Positions 2,692-37,073 of a stretch of DNA of 64,000 nt are shown one piece after another. The notes beneath the pieces were generated by a model. That model made no database searches. It had not been told where the DNA came from and saw only the letters and a program-made list of their open reading frames with translations. Position 1 is the first letter of the stretch, and every line of letters begins with the position of its first letter. Origin of the DNA: Patescibacteria group bacterium (GTDB lineage Bacteria > Patescibacteriota > Minisyncoccia > UBA6257 > 2-01-FULL-56-20); assembly GCA_038077975.1 (NCBI GenBank), contig JBBUGM010000006.1, positions 4,905 to 68,904 on the forward strand, read 5' to 3'. A program made the translations under genes and the position numbers.

Positions 2692-5600
2692 ATGTCGGAC
2701 AAATTGCCTAAAAAAGATTTCTCAAAATCAAAGCCGCTTGTTGAGCCATTTAACCTCAACGAGGCGCAGCTTAGGTCTTACCACTGGTTCATGGACCAGG
2801 GGCTCAAGGAACTTTTTGCGGAAATTTCTCCGATCACGGACAACACCGGCAAAGAACTGGAACTGCATTTCGGCAAGTACCGTTTCGACGAGCCGAAGTA
2901 TGACGAGGTGACATCGCGCTACAAAGACGCGACTTACGAAGCGGCACTAAGAGTTGAGTTGAAGCTGGTACACAAGTCGAGCGGCCGCTCGGAAAAACAA
3001 GAGGCCTATCTCGGCGATTTTCCGGTGATGACGCAGCGTGGCACATTTATTATCAATGGCGTGGAACGCGTTGTTGTTTCCCAGCTCATCCGTTCCGCCG
3101 GAGTTTACTTTACCGCCATTCCTTGGCGCGGACGACAGCTTTTTGGCGCCAAAGTCATCCCGAATCGCGGAGCCTGGCTGGAATTCGAGACGGATATCGA
3201 CGGCGCGATCGAAGTGAAGATCGACCGCAACAGAAAAGTTCCGGTTTCAAGCTTGCTCCGCATCTTCGGCATGGAAGACGAAAAGATCAAAGCCGCTTTT
3301 GCGGACGTTGAGAAGGGACAAACGCGCTACATCGACGCCACCTTCAAGAAGGACGTCGCCAAAAACCAGGAAGAATCGTATCTGGAAATTTACAGGCGTC
3401 TTCGGCCGGGCGATCCGGCAACGCCAGCGACCGCGAAGAACCTGATCGATGCGATGTTCGACCGCGTTGATCGATACGACATCTCCGAAGTCGGTCGTTT
3501 CAAGTTCAACCAGCGCTTGCGTCTTGACGCCAAAAACAAGAACCGATTGCTCGGCGCAGACGACCTTGTCGCCATCGTGCGCGAGATCATCACTTTGAAT
3601 AATCGAGTCGACGCGCAGCCGGACGACATCGATCACTTGGGGAATAGGCGGCTCAAAGCAGTCGGCGAGCTTATCCAAGGAAGATTGCGCATCGGGCTTG
3701 CCCGCTTGCGGAGAATAGTTCAGGATAGGATGTCTACCGAGGAGCGTGATAAGCTCATGCCCGGACAACTCATTAATTTCCGGCCGATCGCTGCGGTTGT
3801 TAAAGAATTTTTTTCTTCTTCCCAACTTTCACAATTTATGGATCAGGTTAACCCTCTCGCGGAATTGGAGCACAAACGCAGGATTTCCGCACTGGGTCCA
3901 GGAGGATTGACGCGCGAAAGAGCGAGTTTTGAAGTGAGAGACGTGCACCGCTCGCATTACGGCAGGATCTGTCCGATCCAAACTCCGGAAGGCGGCAATA
4001 TCGGGCTTATCAACTACTTGGCGAGTTTCGCCAAGATCAACGATTTCGGATTCGTCGAGACGCCTTACGCGAAGGTTGCGGACGGTCGCGTGACGGACGA
4101 AATAGTTTTGCTCGACGCGTTAGAAGAGGAAAGATACAGAATAACGCACGCCGGTGTTCAAAAAGACGCGGAAGGCAACCTTTTAGGCGATCGCGTTGAG
4201 GCGAGGGTAAAAGGAGTTGCCGGCACTTGCGCGCCAAAAGAAGTTGATTTTATCGATATTGCGCCGCATCAATTCGTAAGCGTCGCCACGTCCCTTATTC
4301 CTTTCCTTCAGCACGACGACGCGAACCGCGCCCTGATGGGTTCGAACATGCAAAGGCAGGCGGTGGTTTCCGTAAAACCCTCCGCGCCTTACGTTTCGAC
4401 GGGCGAGGAAGACCGCGTTGCCCTGGATTCCGGCTATGTTATTCAGGCCGAGAGCGCGGGCAAAGTGCTCGAAGCGGACGCGAGCCACATCACTATCAAA
4501 TATCAAAAAGGAGGCCTCAAAACCTACAACCTCGAAAAGTTCAAGAGATCGAACCAGTTCACTTGTATTTCGCAAAAACCGCTCGTCGTACCGGGCGCTG
4601 CGGTGAAGAAGGGCGATATTTTGGCGGACGGCCCCTCGATCGACAACGGCGTTCTCGCCCTTGGGCAGAATCTTTTGGTCGCCTTCATGTCTTGGGGCGG
4701 ATACAACTTCGAAGACGCCGTGATACTTTCCGAGCGCGTCGTGCAGGACGATCTTTTCACGTCGATCCACATCGAGGATTATTACTGTGATGTGCGTGAT
4801 ACGAAACTGGGCCCCGAGATAACGACTCCCGACATCCCAAACGTTTCCGAAGAGAAGTTAAGAAATTTGGACGAAGAAGGCATCATCAGGATCGGCGCGG
4901 AAGTCCGGGCCGGCGACATTTTGGTCGGAAAAATATCTCCGAAAGGAGAAGCGGAACTTACGCCAGAAGAGCGCTTGCTCCGTGCGATCTTCGGCGAGAA
5001 AGCGCGCGACGTTAAAGACACATCGCTCACGCTTTCGCACGGCAAACGCGGCCGCGTTATCAATATCAAAGTTTTTGACCGCGAGAAAGGCGACAAACTC
5101 GAGCCGGGAATCATCAAACGTATACAGGTTGAAATCGCGCAATTAAGAAAAGTGCAGGCGGGCGACAAGCTTGCCGGCAGGCACGGCAACAAGGGAGTTA
5201 TCTCGCAGGTTCGCAGAGTGGAAGATATGCCGCATCTTGAGGACGGCACGCCCGTGGACGTTATTTTGAACCCTTTGGGCGTCGCATCGCGCATGAACCT
5301 CGGACAGATCTTGGAAACCCACCTTGGCTGGGCGGCAAAGACGCTTGGCTACAGGGCGGTTACACCGGGACTTGATTCCGCGAGCGAGGAAGAGATCAAA
5401 GAAGAATTGAAGAAAGCCGGCCTTCCCGAAGACGGGAAAATTAAACTTTTCGACGGCCGCACGGGTAGGCCTTTCGACAAGAAGGTCGCGGTCGGAATCA
5501 TTTATATGATGAAGCTGAACCACTTGGTCGAAGACAAGGCGCACATGCGTTCGATCGGTCCCTACTCTTTGATCACGCAGCAGCCCTTGGGCGGCAAGGC

Positions 5601-8600
5601 GCAGTTCGGTGGCCAGAGATTCGGCGAAATGGAGGTTTGGGCGCTCGAGGGATACGGCGCTCGGCACACGCTCCAGGAGATGCTCACGATCAAGTCGGAC
5701 GACGTTTTAGGGCGCGCCGCCGCGTACGAATCGATCATCAGAGGCGAGACGATCAAAGAGCCGAACCTTCCGGCGTCGTTCAATGTTTTGGTGAACGAAT
5801 TAAAATCGCTTTGTTTCAACGTCAAGCCGCTTTACGCAGACGAAACGCAAAGAAGGGAGGCCTTTTCATCCCTGCAGATATCGATCGCGTCTCCCGAAGA
5901 CATCATGAAATGGTCTCACGGCGAAGTAGTGAAGCCGGAAACCATCAACTACCGGACACAGAGGCCGGAGAAGGACGGGCTTTTCTCCGAGAGGATCTTC
6001 GGTCCGACGAAGGACTACGAATGTTATTGCGGCAAATACAGGAGGGTTCGTTATAAGGGCGTCGTTTGCGACAAGTGCGGAGTCGAGGTGACCCGTGCCT
6101 CGGTTAGGCGCGACCGCATCGGCCACATTCAGCTTGCCGCGCCGGTGGGGCACATTTGGTTCCTCAAAAGCGTGCCGTCGCGCTTAAGTTTGACGCTCGA
6201 TGTTTCCGCTCCGAAGCTCGAAAGGGTGCTCTATTATTCCGCCTACATCGTCACAGAAGTCGATGAAACGGAAAGAAAAAGAGCGCTTGATGATCTCGAA
6301 CGGGAACTCAAAAGCCGCGTCAAGGAGATCGGCAAGAACCGCGGGGCGGAGTCGGAATTGAACGAAGCGGCGAAGGTAACCGAGAACTATCTCGAAAAAT
6401 TGCGTGTCGGTCAGGTGCTAACGGAGACGGAATATTTCAATCTTTCGAAGCGTTTCGGAAGCGTCTTTAAGGCGGGTAGCGGAGCAGAATCGGTGAGGCA
6501 CATTCTCGAAGGATTGGATATGCGGAAAGAAGTTCAGAAGATAGAGAAAGACCTGGAGGATGCGAAGGATCCACTCGCGCAGAGCAAGCTTTTGCGGCGC
6601 CTCAAAATGATGAAGTCGATGATCAAGAACCAGGCGCGGCCGGAATGGATGGTCATCACGACACTCCCGGTTCTTCCGCCCGACTTGCGGCCGATGGTGG
6701 CCTTGGACGGCGGAAGATACGCCACTTCCGACTTGAACGATCTCTACAGGCGCGTCATCAACCGTAACAACCGTTTGAAGCGGCTTTTGGAGATCAAAGC
6801 TCCGGACATTATCGTGCGCAACGAAAAAAGGATGCTACAGGAATCAGTGGATGCCTTGATAGACAACTCCGCTAGGTTCGGCACCCAGCAGATGAGCGCG
6901 CAAAGGCGGCCCCTGCGTTCCTTGGCCGACATGCTCAAAGGCAAGCAGGGCAGATTCAGGCAAAACCTTTTGGGTAAGCGCGTGGACTACTCCGGCCGCT
7001 CCGTTATCGTCGTTGGCCCGCGTCTTAAGATCGACGAATGCGGACTGCCGAAGACGATGGCCCTAGAACTTTTCCGTCCGTTCGTCTTGAGCGAGATTAT
7101 TAAACGTGGACTGGCCCACAACATTCGCGGAGCTGCAAGATTTATGGAAGAAGGCAGTGACGAAGTTTGGGAGATCTTGGAAGAAGTGATGAAAGGCAAG
7201 CGCGTGCTTTTGAACCGCGCGCCGACGCTTCACCGTTTGAGCGTGCAGGCATTCAAGCCGATTTTGATTGAGGGTCTCGCCATACAGGTTCCGCCCTTGG
7301 TTTGCGTTGCCTTCAATGCCGACTTCGACGGCGACCAAATGGCCGTGCATCTTCCGCTTTCACGTCAGGCGCAAAAAGAAAGCGAGGAGATAATGGCCGC
7401 AGGCAGGAATCTTTTGAAACCGGCTACCGGAGAGCTGATCACGACCCCGACACAGGACATGGTTTTGGGAATTTATTATCTGACACAGGCAGAAGATCCA
7501 ATTTCCGGGCAGAGAGCGAAGCGATTTGAAAGCATAGAATCGGCTCTTGTCGCCTATGAATTCGGATTTTTGGGCTTGCGCGAACTTGTGAATTTCCAAG
7601 GGATGGAGACGACCCTGGGGCGCATGATCTTTAATGAATCGTTGGCTGGGCGCGTTCCTTATCAAAACGAAGCTATCACCAAAAAGAAGCTGAGCAAGAT
7701 GATCGAAAGGATATTCATCGAGCGTGGCATCGAAGAAACCAGAGACACCTTAAACAGCGTGAAGTTGCTCGGTTTTGAAATGGCCAGCCGTTCCGGCATC
7801 ACTTGGTCGATGTCCGACCTTGTGGTACCGAAAGCCAAACCGGAAATTTTGGCGGCATCGGAAAAGCAAACGGCAGAAGTATACAGCCAGTTCGAAGAGG
7901 GGTTACTCACCGCGGCGGAGCGCCGGGCGAAAGTTATTAGTATTTGGGAAAAAGCTAAGACGGCAATTTCGAAAGTTATCGCCGTCGGCATCGACAAGAA
8001 CAATTCAATTTACCAGATCGTCGATTCCGGTTCGCGCGGCTCATGGTCTCAGCCGATCCAGATGATGGGCATGAGAGGCCTCGTGCAAAATCCTAAAGGC
8101 GAGATCATCGAACTTCCGATCAAGTCATCGCTTAAAGACGGCATGAGTGTTTTGGAATATTTCATTTCAACGCACGGCGCGAGAAAAGGCACTACGGACA
8201 CGGCTTTAAAAACTGCTCAAGCCGGATATCTTACCCGCCGCCTTGTCGACGTTTCCCAGGACCTCGTTGTCCGCGAAGCGGACTGCAAGACGAAAGACGG
8301 CATCGAGATAGTCCGCGCTGATGGCAAGGAATTCAACCAGTCGCTCGCGAGCCGCGTTTTCTCTCGCACGGCGCTCGAAGACATAAAATCAGGAAGAAAG
8401 ACGCTTATCAAAGCCGGCGAGACGATCAACAAGGCCGTCGCAGAAGAGATCGAAGCCGCAAAGATCGACTCCCTCAAGGTTCGATCGCCGATTTACTGCA
8501 AAACGATCTCGGGACTTTGCGCGAAGTGTTATGGCTTCGATCTCGGCGATGATCAGCCGGTGAGATTAGGCATGGCCGCGGGAGTTGTGGCCGCGCAATC

Positions 8601-9429
8601 GATCGGCGAACCTGGCACGCAGCTCACGATGCGTACTTTCCACACTGGCGGCATCGCCGGTATCGACATTACGCACGGCTTGCCGCGGGTGGAGGAGCTT
8701 TTCGAAGTGAGGCCGCCAAAAGGCAGGGCCATTCTTGCTCCGGCGGACGGGATTATTAAGGAAATAGAAGAGAGAGGGACGGCGAAGGCGGTGCAGTTCG
8801 TCCCGAACGAGGGCAAAAAGAAGAAGCCGCAGGAATTTTTGATCCCGCGCACGGCACTTTTGTTCGTTAAGGCGGGGGACGAAGTTAAGCGCGGCGATCA
8901 GCTTTCCGAAGGGCACTTGGACATCAAGGAACTTTTGGAGATCAAGGGTAAGCCGGAAGTTCAGCGCTACATTATCAACGAAGTGCAAAGGATCTATATG
9001 TCCGAAGGCGCGAGTATCAACAACAAGCATATCGAAATTATCGTGCGCCAAATGTTCTCGCGCGTGCGCATCAAGGATGGCGGCGATTCGTCGGAACTCG
9101 TGATGGGAGAGATCGTGGAAAAGGACAAAGTTTTGGAAGCGAACCGCGAACTGCGGAAGCAGGGCATGAAACAGGTTAAAGCTGAAGAAATATTACTCGG
9201 CATCACAAGGGTCGCGCTTTCCGCGGAAAGCTTCCTTTCAGCCGCTTCTTTCCAGGACACATCGCGCGTGCTCGTTAAAGCCGCGATCGAAGGCAGGATC
9301 GACAAATTGCGCGGCCTCAAAGAAAACGTCATTATCGGCCGCCTCATACCGGTTATCGGCAAGGAAGCCGCCGCAGAAGAAGCAGAGGCGCTTTTGCCAG
9401 GAGCGGAAGAAGTTGCAACCCAAGTGTAA
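2692..9429 (+). CDS. rpoBC: DNA-directed RNA polymerase beta-beta' fusion (RpoB-RpoC in one ORF)
   Basis: N-terminal half is RpoB. C-terminal half is RpoC (Zn finger [23 protein letters not shown], catalytic [11 protein letters not shown]). Junction near nt 5830-5880 has no stop or frameshift. Confidence 0.9.
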
Positions 9430-9521
9430 TGCCAATATGCGAATTCATTCGAATGCAACGAATAATGCGAATTCGTACTATTAGTTGCATTAGTACGCAT
9501 TGGTAGATTAGTATTACGTTT
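9430..9521. promoter_or_regulatory. intergenic region with repeated ATGCGAAT/ATTCGCAT motifs (candidate operator) upstream of rpsF
   Basis: atgcgaattc, ttcgaatgc, aatgcgaattcg repeats; same motif family as 60474-60581. Confidence 0.35.
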
Positions 9522-9956
9522 ATGGAAGAAAAAGACAAAAAAAATTACGAAGTCGCATTTATCCTTGAGAAAGAGGAGAATCTTCAGGATTTTTTGAGGA
9601 TCTCGCGCCAGCACAATATCGAGCCACAAACGGAGGCGCGGGCGCATAAGCTGAATCTTGCTTACAAGATCGAAAAAGCCACGCAGGCCTATTTCGGATT
9701 TTTCAGAACTTCTGCGAATCCTGATGATGTGAAAGCGCTCGAAAAGGACCTGAACACGGCCGCCGGCGTTTTGCGTTTTCTCATCGTCAAACTTCCAAAG
9801 GAAGCGTTTGAGGCGAGGAGGGAAAGAGTTGATATGAGGGATATGAGGAGAGAGAGAAAACCAATGCCCAGAAAAAACATGCCGACACAGCCCAGGGCTT
9901 CGGAAACCTTAAGCAACGAAGCGCTGGAGAAAAAGATTGAAGAAATACTTCAATAA
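9522..9956 (+). CDS. rpsF: 30S ribosomal protein S6
   Basis: S6-like pattern (YEVAFIL..., LAYKIEK, VLRFLIVK) and position directly upstream of ssb. Confidence 0.7.
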   Translation: MEEKDKKNYEVAFILEKEENLQDFLRISRQHNIEPQTEARAHKLNLAYKIEKATQAYFGFFRTSANPDDVKALEKDLNTAAGVLRFLIVKLPKEAFEARRERVDMRDMRRERKPMPRKNMPTQPRASETLSNEALEKKIEEILQ

Positions 9957-10052
9957 AATTTCTAATTTCTAAATCCTAATTTCTAAAATTTGACTATTTT
10001 AAATTTTTGGGATTTGATTAGAGCAATTAGTAATTAGAATAATTAGAAATTT
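9957..10052. repeat. AT-rich inverted-repeat module of CTAATTTCTAA / TTAGAAATTAG units around a TTGACT box
   Basis: aatttctaatttctaaatcctaatttctaa on the left is mirrored by attagtaattagaataattagaaatt on the right. Confidence 0.45.
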
Positions 10053-10541
10053 ATGAATCTCAACAAGGCCCTCCTCATCGGTCGCATCACGGCCGACCCC
10101 CAGCTTCGGACAACTCCCGGTGGGCAGTCGGTTTCAGCATTTTCGGTCGCTACGAACCGTGTTTGGACGGACAAGGCGGGCGCGAAGCAGGAATCTGTCG
10201 AGTTTCACAACATCGTCGTTTGGGGCAGGCAGGCGGAGATAGTGACGCAATATTTAACGAAGGGTAGTATGGTTTTGATCGAAGGACGCCTGCAGACGCG
10301 TTCTTGGCAAGGCAAAGACGGCCAGGAGAGGCGCACGACGGAGATCATTGCCGAGCGGGTGCAGTTCGGTCCCCGTTCGGCAAGCTCCCAGCCTTCGCAG
10401 GGCTACGGCGGGCAGGCAGGGCAGGCGAGGCCTGCAGCTGGCAAGCAAGGTGGCGGTGAAAGTCAGGCGACAAAAGAGGAAGAAGTTCCGACGGTGAATC
10501 TTGATAGTGAAGAAGTGAAGCCGGAGGACCTGCCGTTTTGA
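10053..10541 (+). CDS. ssb: single-stranded DNA-binding protein
   Basis: OB-fold SSB N-terminus (LIGRITADPQLRTTPGG..., VEFHNIVVWG), Gly/Gln-rich linker, acidic C-terminal tail ending DLPF. Confidence 0.85.
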   Translation: MNLNKALLIGRITADPQLRTTPGGQSVSAFSVATNRVWTDKAGAKQESVEFHNIVVWGRQAEIVTQYLTKGSMVLIEGRLQTRSWQGKDGQERRTTEIIAERVQFGPRSASSQPSQGYGGQAGQARPAAGKQGGGESQATKEEEVPTVNLDSEEVKPEDLPF

Positions 10542-10990
10542 TATTCATTTTCTTTATGCCTCAATCACCAGAAAAATCTATTGGCGAAAGCAACCCACCC
10601 CCAGAGAAGCATATTAAAGGCGAAGATTTGGAAATAGCAAAATTATATCAAAAAGAGCACCCAGATTTGGATAGAGATAAATTGGGTGTATTACTAGAAC
10701 GCGAGGGATTTGGAGCTGACCACCATAAGTTCAGTGGATGTAGTGATCGAGCAGAATATATCAATTTGGTTTTAGATAAAATATTTCTATCCCCTGAAGA
10801 AGTTGAACGGCAGAAGCAGATTTTGGCATTATTGAAGCAACTAGAGGACGGAGCAATTTATAAGTCAATTATTGGTTTTATGGGACCAGTTACCAACGAA
10901 GAAGAAAGGCTGCGAAAAATAGAAGATAGGAAAACAAAAATAATAGAAGAACTTCGCAATTTAGGATACGAGATGTATCCTCGGGAATAG
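10538..10990 (+). CDS. hypothetical protein (low-GC gene)
   Basis: 150-aa ORF, markedly lower GC than flanking ribosomal genes, no recognisable motifs. Confidence 0.4.
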   Translation: MIFIFFMPQSPEKSIGESNPPPEKHIKGEDLEIAKLYQKEHPDLDRDKLGVLLEREGFGADHHKFSGCSDRAEYINLVLDKIFLSPEEVERQKQILALLKQLEDGAIYKSIIGFMGPVTNEEERLRKIEDRKTKIIEELRNLGYEMYPRE

Positions 10991-10992
10991 AT

Positions 10993-11277
10993 ATGGCCAG
11001 AGAGCAAGAACCAAATTCAAGAGAGCAGTTAGCGCAAGAGTTTTTGGAAGTGCACGAAAAGTTGAAATCCTTGGTCTATGACCTCGGAGGACCAGCAGGA
11101 TATTTGGAACAATTAGAAGATCCAGTTGGAAAGAGAAATTACACGGATTCAGAAATAGATTCTGGCAAACCACTTTCAGAGATTATAGAGAACGATATAT
11201 ATAAAACAATGGAAGCGGTTGAGGCGGTATCAAAAAAGTGGAGAGAATTAAGAGAAAAACTTAGAGAAATTAACTAA
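10993..11277 (+). CDS. hypothetical protein (low-GC gene)
   Basis: 94-aa ORF 2 nt after the previous stop; same low-GC composition. Confidence 0.4.
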   Translation: MAREQEPNSREQLAQEFLEVHEKLKSLVYDLGGPAGYLEQLEDPVGKRNYTDSEIDSGKPLSEIIENDIYKTMEAVEAVSKKWRELREKLREIN

Positions 11278-15744: not shown

Positions 15745-16068
15745 ATGGCAAAAACAGCAGCTTCAAGCCCCATAACAGCGAAAGAAATAGTTGGCGTCAT
15801 ACTCCGCGACTACGGGCCGGTTGAAAAAGTTATTTTGTTTGGTTCGCGAGCAAGGGGGAATGCCGACGAATCAAGCGATCTCGACCTGATTGTCGTGAAG
15901 AATACCGACAAGCCGTTTGTACGACGATTGGTTGACGCCCCTTATTTTTCAATCCACTCCGACATATTTGTTTACACGCCCAAAGAATTTGAACAAATGC
16001 AAGAAAATGAGAACCCTTTTGTAATGAACGCGCTTGAGCACGGAGTTGTGTTGTATCCCGCGTCTTAA
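15745..16068 (+). CDS. minimal nucleotidyltransferase (MNT) antitoxin-like protein
   Basis: GSRARGNADESSDLDL pol-beta NTase motif, 107 aa. Confidence 0.75.
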   Translation: MAKTAASSPITAKEIVGVILRDYGPVEKVILFGSRARGNADESSDLDLIVVKNTDKPFVRRLVDAPYFSIHSDIFVYTPKEFEQMQENENPFVMNALEHGVVLYPAS

Positions 16069-16069
16069 C

Positions 16070-16480
16070 ATGAAAAATTCTTTTCTAAACGCTCGCCGCT
16101 GGCTGAGGCAGGCTGAATACGACTTTGAACAGGCAGAAAAATCATTTGACGACAAGTCGTACGCCTACGCCGCATTTTTCAGTGAGCAATCGGCACAAAA
16201 ATCACTAAAGGCAGCGCTTTTTAAGAGCGGGAAGCGGGCTATCACGATTCACTCGATTGCGGAACTGGCAAAAGAAGCCGCTGCTGTTGCGGACAAATCA
16301 TTTGCGGAACTTGTTGAAAGCGGCGCGCGGCTCGACAGGCACTACCTTGCCGCGCGTTACCCCGACGCTCTGCCCGAACCAGCCACCCCCTTCGAATCTT
16401 ATGTCGAACAAGACGCGGCAGAGGCGATAGCGTTTGCCCGCAAGATTCTCTCGGCCGCAAAGAAGTTTGTCGAGCGATAA
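16070..16480 (+). CDS. HEPN-domain protein (toxin partner of MNT)
   Basis: Immediately follows the MNT gene; HEPN-like helical protein of 136 aa from the internal ATG. Confidence 0.65.
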   Translation: MKNSFLNARRWLRQAEYDFEQAEKSFDDKSYAYAAFFSEQSAQKSLKAALFKSGKRAITIHSIAELAKEAAAVADKSFAELVESGARLDRHYLAARYPDALPEPATPFESYVEQDAAEAIAFARKILSAAKKFVER

Positions 16481-17045: not shown

Positions 17046-17168
17046 AGGTCGAATATTCATGGCTACGGCAACAACCGTAGCCATTTAGCTTATAAACGTT
17101 TGCCTTGCCTTTTGCGCGTCAGAGTGTAGCATCTAATCAGGAGCTTTGATACATTGAGGAGGTTAGCC

Positions 17169-17876
17169 GTGAAATTCCCGCATACGATAATTGATGCAGG
17201 CAGGGAGCGCCTTCAATCCTTTGAGGAATCTCTGAAAAAGATTAATCTTGCCGCTAGGGCGTCGCCGGATCGCCATGTTAAAACAGGGACGACCGTTGTG
17301 GCCTTTGTTAGTAAAGACGGACAAGTCGGCGTTATCGCGTCTGACGGTCGCATTTCGATGGGGACAATTTCTTTTAAGGAGGAATACAGGAAAATTTTCT
17401 CCTGTCGTATCGGCTTCGTCGGTGTTGCCGGTTCGTTGACCATGGTTCAGTTGGTCATGCCGAACTACAGATTGGACCTGAATAACTTTTGCGACGGGAG
17501 AAATCGTCTTGTTACCGCATCTGGCGCGGTCCACCGGCTTTTCCAGTATTATTTGCGTGCCGCACAACAGGAGGAAGGACAACTTGAATTACTGCCGCTT
17601 TTTTGGGATTTTGAAGAGAAGCAGTGCCGACTCTACGCGCTAGCGGGAATGTGTCACGTGAGAATGAATCACGCATGTGCGATCGGAAGCGGTGTTGGAG
17701 TAAATGGGCTGGATATTGACCGGCAATATACTCCGACGAATTCCAAAAGCCGTCTTATCGCCAATGCGCGCAAGTACATCATAAGGGCGTCTGCTAAAGA
17801 CGGCGCCACAAATCGCCACATTTTCTATGGAATTATAGATAAAGGGAAATTTGACGAAAAGGAGGAGGTGCTCTGA
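17169..17876 (+). CDS. prcB: proteasome beta subunit (Ntn hydrolase) with propeptide
   Basis: TG|TTVVAFVSKDGQVGVIASDGRISMG matches the beta N-terminus Thr1-Thr2 through D17 and K33 context; AGGAGG RBS then GTG start. Confidence 0.7.
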   Translation: MKFPHTIIDAGRERLQSFEESLKKINLAARASPDRHVKTGTTVVAFVSKDGQVGVIASDGRISMGTISFKEEYRKIFSCRIGFVGVAGSLTMVQLVMPNYRLDLNNFCDGRNRLVTASGAVHRLFQYYLRAAQQEEGQLELLPLFWDFEEKQCRLYALAGMCHVRMNHACAIGSGVGVNGLDIDRQYTPTNSKSRLIANARKYIIRASAKDGATNRHIFYGIIDKGKFDEKEEVL

Positions 17877-18619
17877 TGACCGGACTAGGCAGAGTGAACT
17901 ACGGCGCGTTTCTTGCGGACAAGAGAGCAGAGATTCTCAAACATTTGGAAGGATCTTTGCCGACAGTGATTGTCCCGACGTCAAGGGGCATCTATGTTTT
18001 TGCCGAGGAAATTGCTAAGGTCCATTCCACGATTTTGATCGCAGGCGCCGGAAGAATGCTTCCGTCCATTGCCGATTGGTATCGTGCCCAGATGACAGAC
18101 ATGGTTCAGGGCTGGAGTCCGCGCGAACCGAAAGCAAGCGCCGATGTCAATCTTCTGCAGCAGATTTTTTATCCGAACCTGAGCGTAGTGCCTGATGTTT
18201 TTCTGGCGGACCTTGTTCTTGTAGAAATTGGCGCGCAGAGAAGCAGCGACTACATTGCCCGCGTTGACGCTTTTTGCGAAATGAGCGATTTGAGCGACGA
18301 GAAAGTCGTCATAGTAAGTTATAGGGTCAGAAAAGAAAATGGCCACAACGATGACGAGAGCGTCGACGAGCCCGATACCCCATTATCAATAGAGGCCAGA
18401 AAGCAAGCGGAGGATGCCGTTAAAGCCGAGCGCGAAAACGAACTTAGATCTGAATTTTTAGATCTAGGCATGGCTTTGCCGGATAACATGGAAGAACGGC
18501 AAGGGGGAAAGGCAGGCCTTCTCAAGGCCCTAGAGGAGCAATATCCCGGTAAAGCCGTTTTACTCAGGCGCGATTTTGTCAGAAAAAAGGAGTTTGACTG
18601 GGTTTTTGAACCCCTGTGA
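17876..18619 (+). CDS. prcA: proteasome alpha subunit
   Basis: Pattern like actinobacterial PrcA (…SLPTVIVPTSRGIYVFAEE…ILIAGAGR…); TGATG overlap with prcB, GGAGGAGG RBS. Confidence 0.65.
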   Translation: MTGLGRVNYGAFLADKRAEILKHLEGSLPTVIVPTSRGIYVFAEEIAKVHSTILIAGAGRMLPSIADWYRAQMTDMVQGWSPREPKASADVNLLQQIFYPNLSVVPDVFLADLVLVEIGAQRSSDYIARVDAFCEMSDLSDEKVVIVSYRVRKENGHNDDESVDEPDTPLSIEARKQAEDAVKAERENELRSEFLDLGMALPDNMEERQGGKAGLLKALEEQYPGKAVLLRRDFVRKKEFDWVFEPL

Positions 18620-18625
18620 TAGTTT

Positions 18626-18658
18626 GTGCGGGCCCTCTTTTCGGGCCCGTTCTTTTTT
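18626..18658 (+). terminator. intrinsic terminator after prcBA
   Basis: gcgggccc-tcttttc-gggcccg followed by ttcttttttg. Confidence 0.55.
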
Positions 18659-18706
18659 GTTAGTATTGTGTTAGATGTTTGAACGCTTTGGTTATGGGAG
18701 GATGTG

Positions 18707-20389
18707 ATGCCGAGAGAAAATCCCGAAAGACAGCCGGAACTTAGCGCCCAAGAACTTTTGAATCGGCTGCGAAACTGCGAAGATGCATATGCCCGATCCG
18801 CTAGCGCGAACGATAAATTGGCCGAGTTGATTTTTAAACTTGCCCCGTTTAGAGAGCCGCCATACAGCTTGGCAGTTTTCGTTTCTCTGTCCGATATAAA
18901 CGACGGCAGGGAAGAAGGACTAAGAAGATCGCTCGCGTCGCTGGGGGTCGATTCACCCACGGACGGTTTTTCGAAGTGCTATCTTTTGCTGAATAACGGC
19001 GCCATGGCGATCGGCACGGTTGAAGATGAATTAGGAAGAGGCCTCAAGTCGGGACAAGTGGTTCTTGTAAGCGGCAACATGGGGGTTGTGGCCGCGGTTC
19101 CGGACGAAGAAATCAGGCATCTTAAAAGTGTTACGGTAGCGACCATCGAGCAAGTTGTGGACGATTTTATCCTGATTGACGACGGCGCCGGATATCGAGG
19201 CGGAGGCGTTGTTCTTTCTCCTCGTCTCCGGGAAGAGTTGGGGCGTAAACCTCTTGAGAACGGCGACAAAGTTCTGCTTTTTGGGAAATGTATTTTGCGC
19301 GTGCTTGAGAGACAGGAAAAGCGTATAGGTACGCTCGAGAAGGTGACGTTTGAGGATATCGGCGGCCTGGAAAAACAGGCGCAGGAAATCCGCGACCTTT
19401 TGGGCCTCGATTTCTCCGAGGAGCTTAAGCTCAAAATGAACAGAGAGTTTCCGCGGGGGGCGGTCCTTTACGGACCTCCCGGAAACGGCAAGACCCTACT
19501 TGCCCAAGTTTTGGGCAATGAGCTCGGATTTTTCATCGAGCTTGTCAGCGGTCCGGAAATAGAGAGTATGTGGGTTGGCGAAGGGCCGAAAATGATGAGA
19601 GCGAAGTTCGGGAGAGCCTATAAGAACAGGCCGTCTCTTCTGGTTTTTGACGAAGCTGATGTTCTTTTCCCGGTCCGCGGCGCCTCCGTTAGTGAGGGAT
19701 ACAAAACAGATTACCTTGCGCAGTTCAACGTTCTTATGCAGGGAGTTGAGAGTACCGCAGGCGTTTTCGTGCTTTTGCTGACGAATCGAGTTGACCGCAT
19801 TGATCCGGCAGCCATTCGAGCTGGGCGCGCGGATAAGAAAATTTTCATACCGCGTCCCGGTATGGACGGAGCCAAAAAAATCTTCTCGATCCATCTTAGG
19901 CGCTATCCTTTTGCCGGCGCGGATGACGATAAAACGAAAAGAAATCTCATGCGCGGACTTGCAGAGAAAGTGATCGAGGCAGTTTTCAGACGCGGGTCGG
20001 ATACACATCTTTTTACGGCTTTTCGCGGAACGGACGAGACAAGGTATTACATCAGAGATTTCGTTTCCGGAGCGCTGTTCAAAAATATAGCGGACGAGAT
20101 TTCTTTGCGCGCGATGAAGCGCCTTAAAGAGGATGGCACGGAAGCAGATTCTCCGCAGTGCGGTATCACAGAGATAGATGCGGACGGCGTTGCTGCCCAG
20201 GCGATCAGTAATGAGATACCGCGCGACGACGATTCGAGAAATCAATGGCTTTTAACGAACGGATATAAACCGGCAGACACATTTAGAAACGGTCCGGCTC
20301 TCGAGGACGAGAAAGAGCTGGCAAATCGCAGAAAAGTTATGATCCGCAGGCATGCAGTGAGGAAAACAAAGAAAAAGAGGCCCTCGTAA
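18707..20389 (+). CDS. ARC/Mpa-like AAA+ ATPase (proteasome-associated)
   Basis: N-terminal coiled coil, Walker A GPPGNGKT, Walker B LLVFDEAD; basic C-terminus lacking the usual GQYL tail. Confidence 0.7.
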   Translation: MPRENPERQPELSAQELLNRLRNCEDAYARSASANDKLAELIFKLAPFREPPYSLAVFVSLSDINDGREEGLRRSLASLGVDSPTDGFSKCYLLLNNGAMAIGTVEDELGRGLKSGQVVLVSGNMGVVAAVPDEEIRHLKSVTVATIEQVVDDFILIDDGAGYRGGGVVLSPRLREELGRKPLENGDKVLLFGKCILRVLERQEKRIGTLEKVTFEDIGGLEKQAQEIRDLLGLDFSEELKLKMNREFPRGAVLYGPPGNGKTLLAQVLGNELGFFIELVSGPEIESMWVGEGPKMMRAKFGRAYKNRPSLLVFDEADVLFPVRGASVSEGYKTDYLAQFNVLMQGVESTAGVFVLLLTNRVDRIDPAAIRAGRADKKIFIPRPGMDGAKKIFSIHLRRYPFAGADDDKTKRNLMRGLAEKVIEAVFRRGSDTHLFTAFRGTDETRYYIRDFVSGALFKNIADEISLRAMKRLKEDGTEADSPQCGITEIDADGVAAQAISNEIPRDDDSRNQWLLTNGYKPADTFRNGPALEDEKELANRRKVMIRRHAVRKTKKKRPS

Positions 20390-20458
20390 TGGGGGCCTCC
20401 TTTTATTTGCGGCAATGCCTTATAATGCAGATAGCATATTGATTCTAAGGAGAATAAG

Positions 20459-22012: not shown

Positions 22013-23533
22013 ATGGTCAGATATTTTGGCACGGAAAGCGAACACAACGTTTCTTATCGTTCGAAGGAGGGAAAGATCCATAATTCCGCCAACGACGGAC
22101 TTCTGTCGCGCAACCCGCCCACTTTAGCCGATACGGAAATTTTACTGTCGGACATTAGCCCGGGAGAGCTTGGGCGTGACATCTTTTTTAACCCGAGCAA
22201 TATTTGGCTTGCGAACGGAGGCAGGCTATACAAAGACGGAGCTCTTACGGAATATGCCACTCCCGAATGCCAAAGCGCAAAGGAGTTGGTTCTTGCCGAG
22301 ATGGCCGGAGACGAAATTGTGGCGCGCGTAGTGAACAAATTAGCCGATGCCAAAGACGTCTACGCCCTTAAAAGAAGCGCTTCGAAAGAAATGGATTTAA
22401 CGCGCGGAGCCCATGAAAGCTACGCGATTCCGGAGAGTTTTCACAAGGAGCTGATAACGGATATGACGTTGAGCCACCGCATTTTCAAGTTTTTTTCGGC
22501 CAGCCGTCAAACTTTTGCCGGAGCCGGCCACCTTGGTTATCTCGGGAGAGACAAGGTGTCTCATCTTATGTTCTGGGTCAGTCCTAGAATATACTTTATC
22601 GACCTTGAGCTGAATACTGGCACAGTAAGGAACACCGGGCGAGCTTTGGTAAACTCCCGTATTAAACCGCTTGTGGCGGGAAACCTCGAGGGGATGCAGA
22701 GGTTACACTGCATAGTCGGCGACATGAATCGGTCTCCGTGGTCGATTTATCTCAAAATAGGAGTCACGGTTTTGGTCTTGGAGTTTCTTCAACTCGTTAG
22801 TTATGAAGCGTTGAATCGTCTTGGCGGAAAGATGAAGTCGGACGGCACGTTGATTCACCGAGCGAAGGCAGCCACGCTTTTCCTAAACGACAATGCCCTG
22901 AAAGACGACTTTGATTTTTTACTCGATATCCAATACCGCTTAAGCGATGCGGTTTGGGGCATGAGGGAAGAGATTTCCGAAAGACACAATGAATTTGAAG
23001 AGATTTTTTCTTTATGGCGGGAAGCGTTGGATGCCGCGGCCTCTGAAGGCGTTGCGCGCAAGAAATTTGAGAAGCGGCTCGATTGGCTGATCAAAAGGAA
23101 GTTTATTCGCGAACTCGTCGGCGGAGAGATTCCTGCTTTGGACAAAATAGAACGAGGCGATAAATTGCGCAAATTACTTTCTTTCGACTTTGCGTATCAC
23201 CGGGTTAACCACAAAGACCTGTATAAATTTCTGGTTAAGTCGGGCGCCATTGAAGAGAAATATGCGGAAAGCGAAGCTGCGCATTATCTCTCTAGCCCTC
23301 CGGGAGGAAGGGCGAAAAGCCGCGTGTTGATTGCGAGACGAGCGCAGGAGTTAGGCATAGTGAGAAATATCACCGATTTTGACTGGGCAAGAATAGGTTT
23401 TATCCGGGATCTTCTGCCGCAGGCCGATTACGACAGAAGAGTGCCGCCGAGACGAGAAATAGCGTTTGACGACAGAAGCCCGGAAACGTTAAAATTACAC
23501 TTAGAAGATATATACAACTGGATTCGAGGGTGA
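22013..23533 (+). CDS. PafA/Dop-family protein, paralog 2
   Basis: GTESEHN N-terminus and NGGRLYKDGALTEYATPEC; GGAGG RBS. Confidence 0.75.
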   Translation: MVRYFGTESEHNVSYRSKEGKIHNSANDGLLSRNPPTLADTEILLSDISPGELGRDIFFNPSNIWLANGGRLYKDGALTEYATPECQSAKELVLAEMAGDEIVARVVNKLADAKDVYALKRSASKEMDLTRGAHESYAIPESFHKELITDMTLSHRIFKFFSASRQTFAGAGHLGYLGRDKVSHLMFWVSPRIYFIDLELNTGTVRNTGRALVNSRIKPLVAGNLEGMQRLHCIVGDMNRSPWSIYLKIGVTVLVLEFLQLVSYEALNRLGGKMKSDGTLIHRAKAATLFLNDNALKDDFDFLLDIQYRLSDAVWGMREEISERHNEFEEIFSLWREALDAAASEGVARKKFEKRLDWLIKRKFIRELVGGEIPALDKIERGDKLRKLLSFDFAYHRVNHKDLYKFLVKSGAIEEKYAESEAAHYLSSPPGGRAKSRVLIARRAQELGIVRNITDFDWARIGFIRDLLPQADYDRRVPPRREIAFDDRSPETLKLHLEDIYNWIRG

Positions 23534-23536
23534 TCC

Positions 23537-23686
23537 ATGCCAGGTCAGAAACAGCGCGAAAGGCATAAACCCGAAGAAGAGGACAGTCAATTCCCAAAGC
23601 CGCCATCCCCGCTCGACGACATACTCAAAGATTTTGTTGAAGAGCAGGAAGAGGTTTTGGATCAGGAAGAAGACGACGGAGAATAA
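23537..23686 (+). CDS. Pup/UBact-like small acidic ubiquitin-like modifier candidate (49 aa, C-terminal Gly-Glu)
   Basis: Not in the ORF track (under 60 aa). Translates to MPGQKQRERHKPEEEDSQFPKPPSPLDDILKDFVEEQEEVLDQEEDDGE; starts 3 nt after the PafA/Dop paralog 2 stop and is followed by a terminator. Confidence 0.55.
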   Translation: MPGQKQRERHKPEEEDSQFPKPPSPLDDILKDFVEEQEEVLDQEEDDGE

Positions 23687-23690
23687 CGTG

Positions 23691-23722
23691 CCCCGTGCCA
23701 ATTTCGGCTCGGGGCTTTTTTA
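23691..23722 (+). terminator. intrinsic terminator after the Pup-like ORF
   Basis: gccccg...cggggc stem followed by ttttttatt. Confidence 0.5.
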
Positions 23723-23769: not shown

Positions 23770-23803
23770 GGGATTAGACCATTGATATTCTGTGAGGTGG
23801 TTT

Positions 23804-26380
23804 ATGGACAGCGAAACTCCGCGGAATGGTGAAAACGGCGAAATTTCGCTGGTTTCCATGCCGAAGCGGCTGGTTGTTCTTCCTTTAAGCGGCCTTACGC
23901 CTTTTCCGATGGTGTCCACTATTCTCTCGTTTTCTCGCAATGAGTTTGTGGAAGAAATAAAGAAAGATTTGTTTTTCATCGCCACTGCTTTCGTGCGCGG
24001 TGATAGTATTGGGGTGCAAGGCGAAGAAATAGGCGTTCTTAGCGTCGTAAACAAAGACACAATCGTGACACAAGGAAATGCGCATATAGTCCCGGTGAAT
24101 TTTATCGCCAGGACGTTGATTACCGATGTGAAGACGCGGCTTGAAGTGAACAACCTTAAAATTTTTGAGTGCATCCCCGCGCTAAGCCCAGGCGAAAAGA
24201 TCTCTTCTGAAGCATGGGACGATGTTGAATTCCAAAAAAGAATGGCGACACTCAGAGATCTATTAACCGCTTTTTCGGGAGAAGTTTACACTTTATCGGG
24301 CATGCAGATGAATCGCTTGGGAAAGTTTGCCGCGGAAGATCGAACTAGGGCGTTCAAAAAGTTCATTTTGCGTAAGTCGCTAAGCGTTCTTGAAGGTGCC
24401 CTCCAGCGTCTTCGCGACGCGAACAGAGATGATTTTGGGACGTGCATCGACACAGCTGCGGCGCTCCTCGGAGGGCATCTTTCGGGGGGACTCGTCGATG
24501 ATATTACAAGTGACATATTTTGGGGAAAATCCCGGGACGTGTTAAGGGGTTTAGATGTCATGGAAAGGGCGGAGAGCTTTACGGAATTGCTTAATGAGGC
24601 AAGGGAGCTTGTGGCCGCCGCTGGAGAATTTTCACCAGACGATTCCACGGCGATAAACGAGGATTCTTTGCCAGAGAATGTTCGCGAAGAAATCAAAAAA
24701 CTTTTACCCTATGCGCAGGCTAATCCGCCAACCGCGGAGAGCGTTGTCGCGCAGAAACGCATCGAGTGGCTGCGCAATATTCCATGGACGAAGAGAAGCG
24801 AGGACAAAAAAGATTTTGTGAAGATCGAAGCCATTCTCGAAGAAGATCATTGCGGTTTAGAAGAGGTTAAAGAAAGGATCAGCGAATTCATTGCCGTAAG
24901 AAGATCGAAGCCGGACGCAAAGGGCTCCATCCTGTGCTTGGTTGGCCCTCCCGGCGTCGGAAAAACTTCGCTTGGAAAATCCGTCGCGAGAGCCATGGGA
25001 AGAAAATTCGTTCGGCTTTCGCTGGGCGGAATACACGATGAAGCCGAAATTCGCGGGCACAGGAGCACCTATGTGGGCGCCTTGCCTGGACAGATCATGC
25101 AGGCAATGCGTCGCGCCGGAACAAAGAACCCCGTCTTCATGCTGGACGAAATTGACAAGATCGGAAGCGACTTTCGAGGCGATCCGGCCTCTGCGCTTCT
25201 TGAAGTTCTTGACCCAGAACAAAATCATGCATTTCGAGACAATTATCTTGACCAACCCTTTGACCTTTCGGAAGTTTTCTTCATTCTTACGGCGAATACC
25301 GTGTTCACGATACCGCTCGCGCTTTTGAACAGGATGGAAGTTATCGAACTTCCGGCGTATACGGAAGAGGAGAAGATGGAAATCGCTTTTCGCCACATCA
25401 TTCCCAAAGTAACGAATGAATTCGGCATTAGCGAAGAAAATCTTCAAGCCAAAGAAATTCCGGTCTTTAGTGTTGAATTCGAAAAAAAAGCGGTTCAAAA
25501 TATAGTGAGTGTTTATACGCATGACGCCGGAATGCGCAATTCGGAGAGAGCTATTCAGCGTGTGCTAAGGAAGATTTTGAGAGTCGCCGAGAAAAAGCAA
25601 CTGTCGGAATTGACCAGTGATAATGTTGTCAAAGTCACGCCGGAGCTCCTGCTTTCTTTATTGGGTGAACCGAAGCAGCAAGAATGGCTTCCCGGACTAT
25701 TGGGCAAATTGCCGGTTGGAACTTCCGTTGGTATGTCGATCGACGGAACAGGACAGGGTGGAATTTTGGCAGTGGAAGTATCGCTATCCACGCTGGCATC
25801 TCCAAATGAACCCGTCAAGATCAAAAGAACCGGATCATTGCATCCTGTAATGAAGGAATCGATTGGTGTCGCCGTTGACCGCTTGAACAAAATCGGAGGC
25901 GTGCTCGAAGGAATGGCTAACGGTCTATTTGTTCGCATTCACGTGCCCGATGGCGCGATTCCTAAAGATGGCCCGTCGGCAGGCGTTGCTGAAATCGAGG
26001 CTCTTTACTCGGCGATTTTGAGTTTTAGGAGCGGCAAGTCCATTTCCGCCAAACCGTTTTTTGCGGCGACGGGAGAGATCACGCTCAATATGGATATCTG
26101 CGCGCCTATAGGCGGTGTTACCGCCAAACTCCTTGGGGCGCGACGTGCCGGTATTCGCGAAGCAGCGATTCCGTACGCGAATAGACGTGATATCAAGAAA
26201 GTTCCGGCGGGATGGCGCATCATTACGCCAGAAGACCGCGACGGCAAGTCGTGGAAAGAGCTTTCGCTCGAAGAAAAGCCCGAAGGAAGTTTTACCGTCT
26301 ATTGCGTAGAGAGGCCGGAAGACGTTTTGGAACTTGCTTTCCCGAACGACTATCCGCCTCGAAAGCAGGAAGAGAAATAA
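23804..26380 (+). CDS. lon: ATP-dependent Lon protease
   Basis: LON N-domain, AAA GPPGVGKTSLGKS, proteolytic DGPSAGVA Ser site. Confidence 0.9.
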   Translation: MDSETPRNGENGEISLVSMPKRLVVLPLSGLTPFPMVSTILSFSRNEFVEEIKKDLFFIATAFVRGDSIGVQGEEIGVLSVVNKDTIVTQGNAHIVPVNFIARTLITDVKTRLEVNNLKIFECIPALSPGEKISSEAWDDVEFQKRMATLRDLLTAFSGEVYTLSGMQMNRLGKFAAEDRTRAFKKFILRKSLSVLEGALQRLRDANRDDFGTCIDTAAALLGGHLSGGLVDDITSDIFWGKSRDVLRGLDVMERAESFTELLNEARELVAAAGEFSPDDSTAINEDSLPENVREEIKKLLPYAQANPPTAESVVAQKRIEWLRNIPWTKRSEDKKDFVKIEAILEEDHCGLEEVKERISEFIAVRRSKPDAKGSILCLVGPPGVGKTSLGKSVARAMGRKFVRLSLGGIHDEAEIRGHRSTYVGALPGQIMQAMRRAGTKNPVFMLDEIDKIGSDFRGDPASALLEVLDPEQNHAFRDNYLDQPFDLSEVFFILTANTVFTIPLALLNRMEVIELPAYTEEEKMEIAFRHIIPKVTNEFGISEENLQAKEIPVFSVEFEKKAVQNIVSVYTHDAGMRNSERAIQRVLRKILRVAEKKQLSELTSDNVVKVTPELLLSLLGEPKQQEWLPGLLGKLPVGTSVGMSIDGTGQGGILAVEVSLSTLASPNEPVKIKRTGSLHPVMKESIGVAVDRLNKIGGVLEGMANGLFVRIHVPDGAIPKDGPSAGVAEIEALYSAILSFRSGKSISAKPFFAATGEITLNMDICAPIGGVTAKLLGARRAGIREAAIPYANRRDIKKVPAGWRIITPEDRDGKSWKELSLEEKPEGSFTVYCVERPEDVLELAFPNDYPPRKQEEK

Positions 26381-35123: not shown

Positions 35124-37073
35124 ATGGCGGTTGACGAGATAAAAAAGACGGGTCTTCCGCGCGGAATTGGTTGGGGGATTTTCGCGCTGATTTTGGTTTT
35201 CATCGGCGGGCTATTTTTAACTTTCGGCCGGACGAAAGATATTACCGCGGAAAGGGTGGCAGGCAACATCGATGAATTGAAGAGCGGCGTCGAAGACCTG
35301 CGCAACTTTAACACCGAATCGGCTAAAGAGAGATTTTCTCGAATAGGAACGGAGATAGTCGATATTAGGGATTCGGTGGGAATTTTCGGCTCGCTTTTTA
35401 GTGGCACGGGAGAGCTTTTGCTAAATTTTCAAAACGTGACAGCGCAAGGCATCGCCTTGAGTGGCGAGATGGAATTCCTGCGCGCGAACGCGCTCGGTCT
35501 TTTCCTTGAAGACGGAAAGACGCTTCTCGAACATCTTAAAACTGTCCAGGGTGCGCTTAGAAGTGTTGATGAGTCGGCGCGCAAGCTCGCTACGGCGGCG
35601 TCCGGTCTCAATGAGGCCGCTTCGCTCGCCGGAGAATTCTATTTGCCGTTCCAGCTCGATCTCGCGCGGTTCATGGGTTTTCTTGATGCGCTTTTGCCGA
35701 AGCTCGAAGCGGAAGAGATAAATTTTTTGGTCCTTTTCCAAAATCCGTCGGAGATAAGGCCCGCGGGAGGATTTCTCGGGAGCTATGCCGTGGTTTCGGT
35801 GAAGGGGGGCCAGCTCCAAAACGTGGAAGTGCACGACGTAAACGACGTCGACCGTACTTTTGAAGATAAGATCACGCCGCCGCGGCCGCTTCAGGCGGTT
35901 GCGAGGTCATGGCGTCCGTATGACGCAAATTGGTTTTTCGATTTTGCTCTCTCGGCAAAAAAGGTTGCGAAATTTTTCGAGACATCCGGACTGTACCGAG
36001 ACAAGGCCGCCCCTGACGGTGCCGCAGCCCCGTTTGACGGGGTGATGGCAGTTTCTCCTAAGGTTGTCGAAGACATTCTTGCGCTTACCGGCCCCATCGA
36101 ACTACCGGAAAGAAAATTGGTTTTTAATGAAGATAATTTTTTGATGGAAACCCAGCGCCTTGTGCAGGAAGGCCAGGCGACGAACTCGACATATCCCAAA
36201 AAAATATTGGAAGAACTCGCGCCGCTTATATTTGAGCGCGTCAAAACGATGGACGACGCGCAAAAAAATGAATTTTGGAATTTGGTTTCTGATTGGATCA
36301 GCCGCAAGGACATTATGGTTTATTTTGTGGAGCCGAAACTCCAGAGTTTCGCGCGGTACTACGGGGCAACGGGTGAGACATACGAATTATCGCAGGATTG
36401 GAATGGCAATTACTTAGCGCTCGTCGATGCGAACATTGGCGGCGGCAAATCGGATCTTTTCATTAAGCAAAATATCGTCTTGGAGAGCCAGATCAATGCC
36501 GACGGCACTATTTCCAACCATCTGGTCGTTGATCGCATCCACGAGGGTAATAGATCGAAGTACTGGTGGTACAAGGAAACGAACCAAAATTACCTTCAGG
36601 TTTTCGTGCCAAGTTCCGCGCGGCTTACGAACTTCAAAGGTGGCGTGGACAAAACAATTACGCCGAAAGTGAATTACGTAAAAGAGGGATATGACGTGGA
36701 CAGCGATGTTTCCGCTATCGAAAGTTCGGAGGAAGCGGTTTTCAATTTCCCTGCGGTTCGTATGCACAAAGAACTGGGCAAGTCGGTTTTCTCCACCTGG
36801 TCGGCAACAAAAGCGGGCGCGAGAACACAGCTTGTTTTCGATTACGTGACGCGGCTCGCTCTCGCTCCCGAGGACGGAGTGGAATATCACTTTGTTTTCG
36901 AAAAACAAGCCGGGACTGCTCGCAATTATAAATTCCAGATCAGCGCCCCGGCCGGATTTCGTTTCGCGGAGAGCGGCTTGCCGGTATTTGCGTATGAAGC
37001 AGTGAGTAACGCTACGTCTTCTAGTGCGCTCCCGGGGCGGTTGATCGTAGATTTGACATTGGAGAGGATCTGA
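35124..37073 (+). CDS. DUF4012-like membrane-anchored extracytoplasmic protein
   Basis: N-terminal TM, 649 aa, motif NPSEIRPAGGFLGSYAVV recalled from the DUF4012 family. Confidence 0.5.
   Translation: MAVDEIKKTGLPRGIGWGIFALILVFIGGLFLTFGRTKDITAERVAGNIDELKSGVEDLRNFNTESAKERFSRIGTEIVDIRDSVGIFGSLFSGTGELLLNFQNVTAQGIALSGEMEFLRANALGLFLEDGKTLLEHLKTVQGALRSVDESARKLATAASGLNEAASLAGEFYLPFQLDLARFMGFLDALLPKLEAEEINFLVLFQNPSEIRPAGGFLGSYAVVSVKGGQLQNVEVHDVNDVDRTFEDKITPPRPLQAVARSWRPYDANWFFDFALSAKKVAKFFETSGLYRDKAAPDGAAAPFDGVMAVSPKVVEDILALTGPIELPERKLVFNEDNFLMETQRLVQEGQATNSTYPKKILEELAPLIFERVKTMDDAQKNEFWNLVSDWISRKDIMVYFVEPKLQSFARYYGATGETYELSQDWNGNYLALVDANIGGGKSDLFIKQNIVLESQINADGTISNHLVVDRIHEGNRSKYWWYKETNQNYLQVFVPSSARLTNFKGGVDKTITPKVNYVKEGYDVDSDVSAIESSEEAVFNFPAVRMHKELGKSVFSTWSATKAGARTQLVFDYVTRLALAPEDGVEYHFVFEKQAGTARNYKFQISAPAGFRFAESGLPVFAYEAVSNATSSSALPGRLIVDLTLERI

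Follow-up and report, generated by a model that had tools for sequence, protein, structure and literature searches.

The locus described here raises the question of whether a short gene at the end of an operon for proteasome-related proteins encodes a protein modifier of the Pup type. The gene is found in a 64-kb stretch of Patescibacteria DNA (hereafter the window, by which the whole stretch analyzed is meant) and directly follows two genes of the Pup ligase family. Our analyses revealed a genuine, conserved gene that is inherited together with those of the two enzymes. Its product is probably a Pup-type degradation tag that is conjugated via a C-terminal Glu and that belongs to a third family, distinct from Pup and UBact.

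The small gene and its operon

The small ORF is located on the forward strand at positions 23537–23686, with an ATG at 23537 and a TAA at 23684–23686, and encodes a 49-aa protein (MPGQKQRERHKPEEEDSQFPKPPSPLDDILKDFVEEQEEVLDQEEDDGE) that consists of a disordered N-terminal half, an acidic helix and an 8-residue tail ending with D-G-E. Re-translation of the window yielded coordinates and a 49-aa string identical to those in the initial annotation, and the start is indeed 3 nt past the second Pup_ligase gene, whose TGA stop (23531–23533) is separated from the ATG by the sequence TCC. A Shine-Dalgarno sequence (GAGGG; 23526–23530, forward strand) is found 6 nt upstream of the ATG, and an intrinsic terminator with a 9-bp interrupted GC stem and U6 closes the operon (23690–23721, forward strand). 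The terminator hairpin (23690–23715; −19.8 kcal/mol, z = −3.6) begins 3 nt past the stop codon of the small ORF and is followed by the U6. The small ORF is the last gene of the operon and is provided with its own Shine-Dalgarno sequence. We noticed that the small ORF shares its reading frame with the preceding ligase-family gene, with only TGA TCC between them, such that read-through of the stop codon would yield a ligase-tag fusion. This shared frame is probably coincidental, because it is not kept in L001, one of the related loci described below.

The ORF was initially described as un-annotated and as one that length-based gene callers miss. Both descriptions were incorrect, as GenBank holds it as the hypothetical protein MEK9179944.1 (locus tag AAB897_00845) of a Patescibacteria MAG, and the ORF and its relatives are called in NCBI, ENA, JGI and Logan assemblies. 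The description of the protein itself fared better. The strongly acidic C-terminal helix is evident from the net charge of −12 for residues 25–49 and from the helix that AlphaFold2 predicted for residues 25–47 with a pLDDT of ~80, and the translation ends with Gly followed by Glu (i.e., D-G-E). The N-terminal part, which had been called basic and disordered-looking, is predicted to be disordered, with residues 1–24 unstructured in the AlphaFold2 model, but it is not basic as a whole: the net charge of residues 1–24 is 0, and the basic stretch is confined to residues 1–11.

The genes of the operon encode, in order, a proteasome beta-like subunit, a subunit-sized protein, an Mpa-like AAA ATPase, the Dop-like Pup_ligase paralog P1, the PafA-like Pup_ligase paralog P2 and the 49-aa protein. 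The beta-like subunit (17154–17876, forward strand; Pfam PF00227, E = 3.5e-12) has a propeptide and a Thr1 motif in which Gly precedes TTVVAF (…HVKTGTTVVAF in the translation), and a beta-like gene also heads the operon in L002, L005, L011, L019 and L021. The following gene (17876–18619, forward strand) occupies the alpha-subunit position, and its subunit-sized product had no significant sequence match in Pfam, NCBIfam or PDB. All full-length relatives possess a gene at this position, which encodes 222–247 aa without a Pfam match and in which the motifs PPTIVV and GIY[VI]F are kept; the product may be an alpha subunit that has diverged strongly, or a protein of another kind.

The AAA ATPase (18704–20389, forward strand) is Mpa/ARC-like. 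Among the models that cover nearly its full length, NCBIfam TIGR03689 (pup_AAA) scored best, with 183 bits over residues 33–491, although this score is under the curated cutoff of the model, and the ATPase matched the Mpa chains of PDB with ~140 bits. An N-terminal helical segment is found ahead of a conserved EPPY motif; this N-terminal helix is short and variable among the ATPases of the lineage and is very short in L002. A C-terminal docking motif of the HbYX/GQYL type is absent from the ATPases of the window, L002, L005, L011, L012, L019 and L021. The ATPase of the window ends with a basic tail (…RKTKKKRPS), compared to …TTGHYL in Mpa of Nitrospira. The ATPases of the relatives share a conserved WxL..GY motif ~15–25 residues before their ends. 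Terminator-like hairpins with T-runs are also found inside the operon at 18628–18650, past the gene in the alpha position, and at 20377–20399, where the hairpin overlaps the ATPase stop codon; these could be internal attenuation points.

The operon is framed by housekeeping genes in conserved synteny, with GatB upstream and MiaA-ThrRS downstream. The possibility that it is a defense system was rejected, because PADLOC gave nothing beyond generic AAA hits and the gene neighborhood is stable and of a housekeeping kind. Between GatB and the proteasome operon are genes for an MNT nucleotidyltransferase (15745–16068) and a HEPN protein (16034–16480), a typical toxin-antitoxin pair that was not seen at the corresponding place in L021. 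A full-length Lon protease gene (AAA + Lon_C; 23792–26380) is located directly past the terminator of the small gene and before MiaA, whereas in the relatives MiaA directly follows the small gene. Elsewhere in the window are a 2269-aa ORF (2620–9429, forward strand) and a gene for a DUF4012 protein (35124–37073).

Conservation of the small gene in related loci

When the 49-aa sequence was used as a direct protein query, it retrieved only itself. Relatives of P2 comprised 11 matches among 5.8 billion clusters, as well as nine metagenome loci, and no relatives were found in the GTDB species genomes, which were scanned twice, once with the single P2 sequence and once with an alignment of P2. The latter result suggests that the lineage is uncommon or that the representatives do not cover it. 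Among the loci of the close group (i.e., L001, L002/L010/L023–25, L003/L004, L005, L011, L012, L019, L020 and L021/L022), the identity of P2 varies from 30 to 45%. A gene of 46–65 aa is found in every one of these loci on the same strand as P2, at −41 to +12 nt from the P2 stop codon. In most of the related loci the homologous ORF is preceded by a Shine-Dalgarno sequence of the GGAG/GAGG type, and a hairpin with a T-run is found 3′ of it in L001, L002, L010, L003, L011, L019, L020 and L021.

The check for conservation that the initial annotation had proposed thus gave a clear result: the position, size, acidic helix and G-[EQ] end are kept in 10 other lineages with divergent neighbors. The ORF is short, of low complexity and without a database family, and on these grounds could be suspected of being a random ORF or a false gene call within the untranslated 3′ end of the operon. 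Such an origin is refuted, because position, strand, length, motifs and terminus are conserved across these loci; moreover, the terminator in most relatives lies after the ORF, not before it. We consider an artefact of this kind extremely improbable.

A family profile built from the small proteins added P0017, P0018 and P0020, and then P0021–P0023. The motifs found in the family (alignment A5) are P.P...P, PIE[KR][FY][RK], which is degenerate in the window protein, [LI]D[FY]S.[YF] and E.[VI].E[DE].[LI]. All but one of the 13 distinct family proteins terminate with GE, GQ or GGE (12/13), compared to a background of 4 G[EQ] endings among 373 mechanical ORFs of 40–100 aa in the window (1.1%). The GGE terminus is found in four sisters (L011/P0020, P0021, P0022 and P0023) and a terminal Gln in P0025, P0013 and P0017. 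The near-identical proteins P0019 and P0025 differ in the last residue, which is E in one and Q in the other. An E/Q difference at the last residue is known for Pup. Comparison of L002 and L010 revealed three synonymous and three non-synonymous changes, which are too few for use.

The exception is P0018 (L019, 6795–6992), which ends with …PGQRLNL, four residues past the expected Gln. At the DNA level, the four extra codons continue the reading frame up to a double stop (TAA TAA). P0018 may require C-terminal trimming, may be an inactive tag or may result from a wrong assembly.

In 10 of the 13 proteins, for both GGE and xGE ends, the last bulky hydrophobic residue is followed by exactly eight more residues. 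The window protein had been likened to a Pup that is shorter and has a single Gly. The single Gly is correct, but a shortened tail is not: because the length of the tail is fixed at eight residues and sisters of the window protein end with GGE, the single Gly is a substitution inside the tail.

Comparison with Pup and UBact

Pup occurs together with PafA, Dop, Mpa and the 20S proteasome in Actinobacteria and Nitrospirae, and, to our knowledge, pupylation has been studied almost exclusively in Actinobacteria. Outside Actinobacteria, the only named tag family that we know of is UBact, and we know of no experimental test of it. In 2017, Lehmann and co-workers reportedly listed UBact in the CPR groups Parcubacteria, Yanofskybacteria and Terrybacteria. 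None of the papers covered by our literature search ties pupylation or Pup to Patescibacteria or Parcubacteria.

The window locus resembles the Pup system in several respects. In both, a small, disordered and acidic protein is helical toward its C-terminus and terminates in an extended tail, with Gly followed by Glu or Gln at the very end, and both possess an operon that encodes an Mpa-like AAA ATPase, a proteasome beta subunit with Thr1 and two paralogs of the glutamine-synthetase fold, one resembling Dop and the other PafA. The alternation of E and Q at the terminus is also shared, as is the GGE end in four members of the family. UBact is likewise a Pup-like tag outside Actinobacteria that has a single Gly followed by Glu/Gln and is linked to homologs of Dop, PafA, Mpa and the 20S proteasome.

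The curated models of these families did not, however, recognize the new proteins. No match at E ≤ 10 was found between Pfam PF05639 (Pup) or PF20513 (UBact) and the 14 family sequences scanned, including the window protein, or between NCBIfam TIGR03687 (Pup) or NF033388 (UBact) and the ten family sequences tested. Under these models, Pup of Mtb, which served as a control, scored 79.7 bits (PF05639) and 74.7 bits (TIGR03687), and a Nitrospira-type UBact control scored 75.4 bits (PF20513) and 77.8 bits (NF033388); the two control sequences were validated by these strong matches to the curated models. Alignment to the Pup and UBact families, which had been suggested as a check, gave no support either: hhalign of the family alignment against the controls yielded probabilities of 0.08% for Pup and 0.11% for UBact. 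A HMMER scan of 1.84 billion representatives with the family profile (E ≤ 0.001) yielded nine matches, of which eight were family clusters and one was a spurious repeat protein, and none of the inspected matches resembled the Pup or UBact controls. Against the PDB sequences, the family profile gave only noise, with no Pup chain among the matches. Neither the 64-kb window nor the related loci contain a canonical Pup- or UBact-like ORF, and no UBact or Pup ORF was found near the Mpa-Dop-PrcBA-PafA genes of the Nitrospira locus L006. Because Pup and UBact showed no detectable resemblance to the family at the sequence level, the analogy with Pup rests on genomic context and on the terminus. The core of the initial annotation, a Pup/UBact-like modifier encoded after two PafA/Dop paralogs, is therefore upheld by position and conservation, but membership in a curated family is not, as the HMMs were negative.

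Further differences are found in the tail, the gene order and the partner proteins. The tail of Pup comprises 5 residues (QKGGQ), with a charge of −3 over the last 20 residues, and that of the UBact control 6 residues (RQRTGE, within …KYRQRTGE), which are basic, with a charge of +5 over the last 20; the tail of the Patescibacteria family comprises 8 residues and is polyacidic, and the charge of the window protein over the last 20 is −10. Pup has two Gly and the window protein one (D-G-E). In UBact, a basic R-[TS] context appears to precede Gly and the terminal Glu/Gln, as it does in the control sequence; the window protein also has G-E, with D-D in front of it. In the window the putative tag gene is last, after the PafA-like gene, in contrast to the Pup gene, which is located between dop and prcB. 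Unlike its counterpart in the Pup system, the window ATPase lacks GQYL, the alpha subunit is unrecognizable and some relatives possess 3–4 ligase paralogs. The duplication that gave P1 and P2 also maps poorly onto the orthology of Dop and PafA in a rough NJ tree.

These results bear on the possibility that the protein is a very divergent member of the known UBact (or Pup) family, in which case the UBact sequences of CPR bacteria could belong to the same family. The operon is indeed built on the same logic and the G-[EQ] end is shared, some sisters end with GGE as Pup does, and the ends of the L003 and L005 proteins (K-Q-G-E and Q-K-Q-G-E) recall the basic tail of UBact. Short disordered proteins also quickly lose detectable similarity. 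Moreover, Pup has been defined broadly, as proteins of 50–90 aa with a G[EQ] signature, helices plus an extended tail and linkage to the PafA family (Iyer et al., 2008; PMC2588565). The window protein conforms to this broad definition, with its 49 aa being one residue below the quoted range, but with its D-G-E end it lacks the Gly-Gly-Glu/Gln that characterizes curated Pup. Against this possibility are the failure of PF05639 and PF20513 to match any of the 14 sequences and of TIGR03687 and NF033388 to match any of the ten, while the controls scored 75–80 bits, the probability of ~0.1% in the profile-sequence comparison by hhalign, the scan of 1.84 billion representatives, which gave family clusters and none among the inspected matches like the controls, and a tail whose length and charge are unlike those of both Pup (5 aa) and the UBact control (6 aa, basic). 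We therefore regard membership in UBact or Pup as rather unlikely and favor a third family. Judging from the sequences available so far, this family appears to be confined to a small lineage labeled Patescibacteria.

A separate system was observed in L009, a 495-kb contig, at 8001–11087. It includes an 82-aa ORF (9620–9868) that ends with GGE, is located between Pup_ligase genes and had no match to the Pup or UBact HMMs. Its neighbors are genes for ThiF (E1-like), JAB, YukD-like, Prok-RING and CHAT proteins and for an 816-aa ATPase.

Ligase paralogs and the proposed tagging pathway

P1 (20459–22000, forward strand; PF03136, E = 2e-85) and P2 (22013–23533, forward strand; PF03136, E = 1.2e-51) are recorded in GenBank as MEK9179942.1 and MEK9179943.1, both as "proteasome accessory factor PafA2 family protein." P1 is Dop-like, given that its best PDB matches were Dop with 152 bits and PafA with 122 bits, and P2, the more divergent of the two, is PafA-like, with 88.5 bits to PafA over its full length and 81 bits to Dop over its N-terminal half only. 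The NG.R motif of P1 is found at residue 86 (residue 89 in Nitrospira Dop), which corresponds to an insert of the size of the Dop loop ahead of this motif. In the rough NJ tree of the ligase paralogs, classical Dop and PafA group together, nearer to P1. P1 does not fall with Dop as an ortholog in this tree, nor P2 with PafA, and the labels used here rest on the PDB scores and the Dop-loop-sized insert.

The active sites of both enzymes are complete. P1 retains GxExE, the Y.D motif, EY.TPEC, the His of HxNY and RLH, and the catalytic Asp and the Mg ligands are retained in P2. The elements of the carboxylate-amine ligase active site (i.e., GxExE, the Tyr and Asp of Y.D, the Glu of EY.TPEC and two His) are all present in P1, P2 and their relatives. 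The motifs kept in P1 and P2 are the counterparts of the Mg-binding residues and catalytic Asp of Acidothermus Dop (PMC8599861). The AlphaFold2 model of P2 (pTM 0.83) had 4BJR, Dop structures and 4B0T as its best Foldseek matches, with a TM of ~0.7 to the PafA/Dop fold. We also noticed that the motif of P1 reads CHANY in the window and WHGNF in L002 (3530–5050), such that the Dop-like paralog in the sub-clade of the window has lost the Glu of the otherwise conserved H-E-N-Y motif and kept the Mg-binding His.

Extra Pup_ligase paralogs are encoded 3′ of the small gene in L012 (5454–6935 and 7001–8545) and L019 (7073–8530 and a cut gene from 8594), such that these loci possess 3–4 ligase-family genes each; in the rough NJ tree, the extra paralogs fall with the PafA-like P2 clade. 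In Actinobacteria, one PafA serves all substrates. The multiplication in L012 and L019 might hint at substrate-specific ligases.

From the gene content and the motifs described above, we infer conjugation of the small protein, a division of roles between the two paralogs, recognition by the ATPase and degradation. In the proposed pathway, P2 would use ATP to phosphorylate the side-chain carboxylate of the C-terminal Glu of the tag, and the activated tag would then be joined to lysines of target proteins through an isopeptide bond. P1 would remove the tag, and in the relatives whose tag ends with Gln, P1 would first deamidate it. The occurrence of such relatives (P0025, P0013 and P0017) implies that the deamidase activity is kept in the lineage. 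That one of the paralogs is purely a depupylase in the genome of the window, as the initial annotation proposed, is plausible. The acidic amphipathic helix (residues ~25–41) is the likely element to occupy the binding groove of the enzymes, from which the fixed 8-residue tail would extend to the active site. The Mpa-like AAA ATPase and the beta-type proteasome would then receive the tagged proteins. This degradation step calls for caution, because the docking motif is absent from the ATPase, its N-terminal helices are short and variable, and the protein in the alpha position is unrecognizable.

Modeling did not place the tag in the enzyme with confidence. In an AlphaFold2 model of a direct P2-tag fusion, for which homologs of P2 served as the alignment, the enzyme part had a pTM of 0.83, but the tag helix had a pLDDT of 42–64, compared to ~80 when modeled alone, the pLDDT of the last 7 residues of the tag was <50, and no confident docking was obtained. 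The first Foldseek match of the fusion model was the PafA-Pup fusion 4BJR, but with an rmsd of 11 Å we do not take this match as supporting.

The lack of a confident placement for the terminus would suit a small acidic protein that is not conjugated at all and acts as a regulator or pseudo-substrate occupying the groove, as a proteasome assembly factor or as an adaptor of the ATPase. Acidic disordered proteins are often competitive regulators, and the terminus of P0018 is blocked (GQRLNL) while the rest of its sequence is kept. The G-[EQ] end in 12 of the 13 proteins and the interchange of E and Q are, however, hard to explain without a chemistry of the terminal side chain, both enzymes have complete active sites, and the fixed tail of 8 residues suggests a ruler from the groove to the active site. 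A role without conjugation is therefore improbable, and a Pup-type tag conjugated via its C-terminal Glu is the reading that we prefer.

The kind of system and the proposed mechanism are already known, and no concept is overturned; what is new is the sequence family and its tail, in a phylum that has received little study. A broader reading, which we put forward only tentatively and which may well prove wrong, is that this lineage of Patescibacteria possesses a self-contained and diverged system of tagging and degradation that is characterized by a third tag family, ligases that have multiplied in some genomes, an ATPase without the canonical docking motif and an unrecognizable alpha subunit. 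Our result shows that a lineage of ultra-small bacteria with reduced genomes keeps a full operon for a putative tag, ligase, deligase, ATPase and proteasome. The putative tag escapes the Pfam and NCBIfam models of Pup and UBact that were tested and is labeled "hypothetical" in GenBank, and the family alignment may serve as the seed for a new model with which such tags can be detected. The multiplied paralogs provide a lead on ligase multiplication, and the family as a whole would be a natural variant with which to ask what parts of Pup matter, such as one Gly vs. two, the length of the tail and the charge of the tail.
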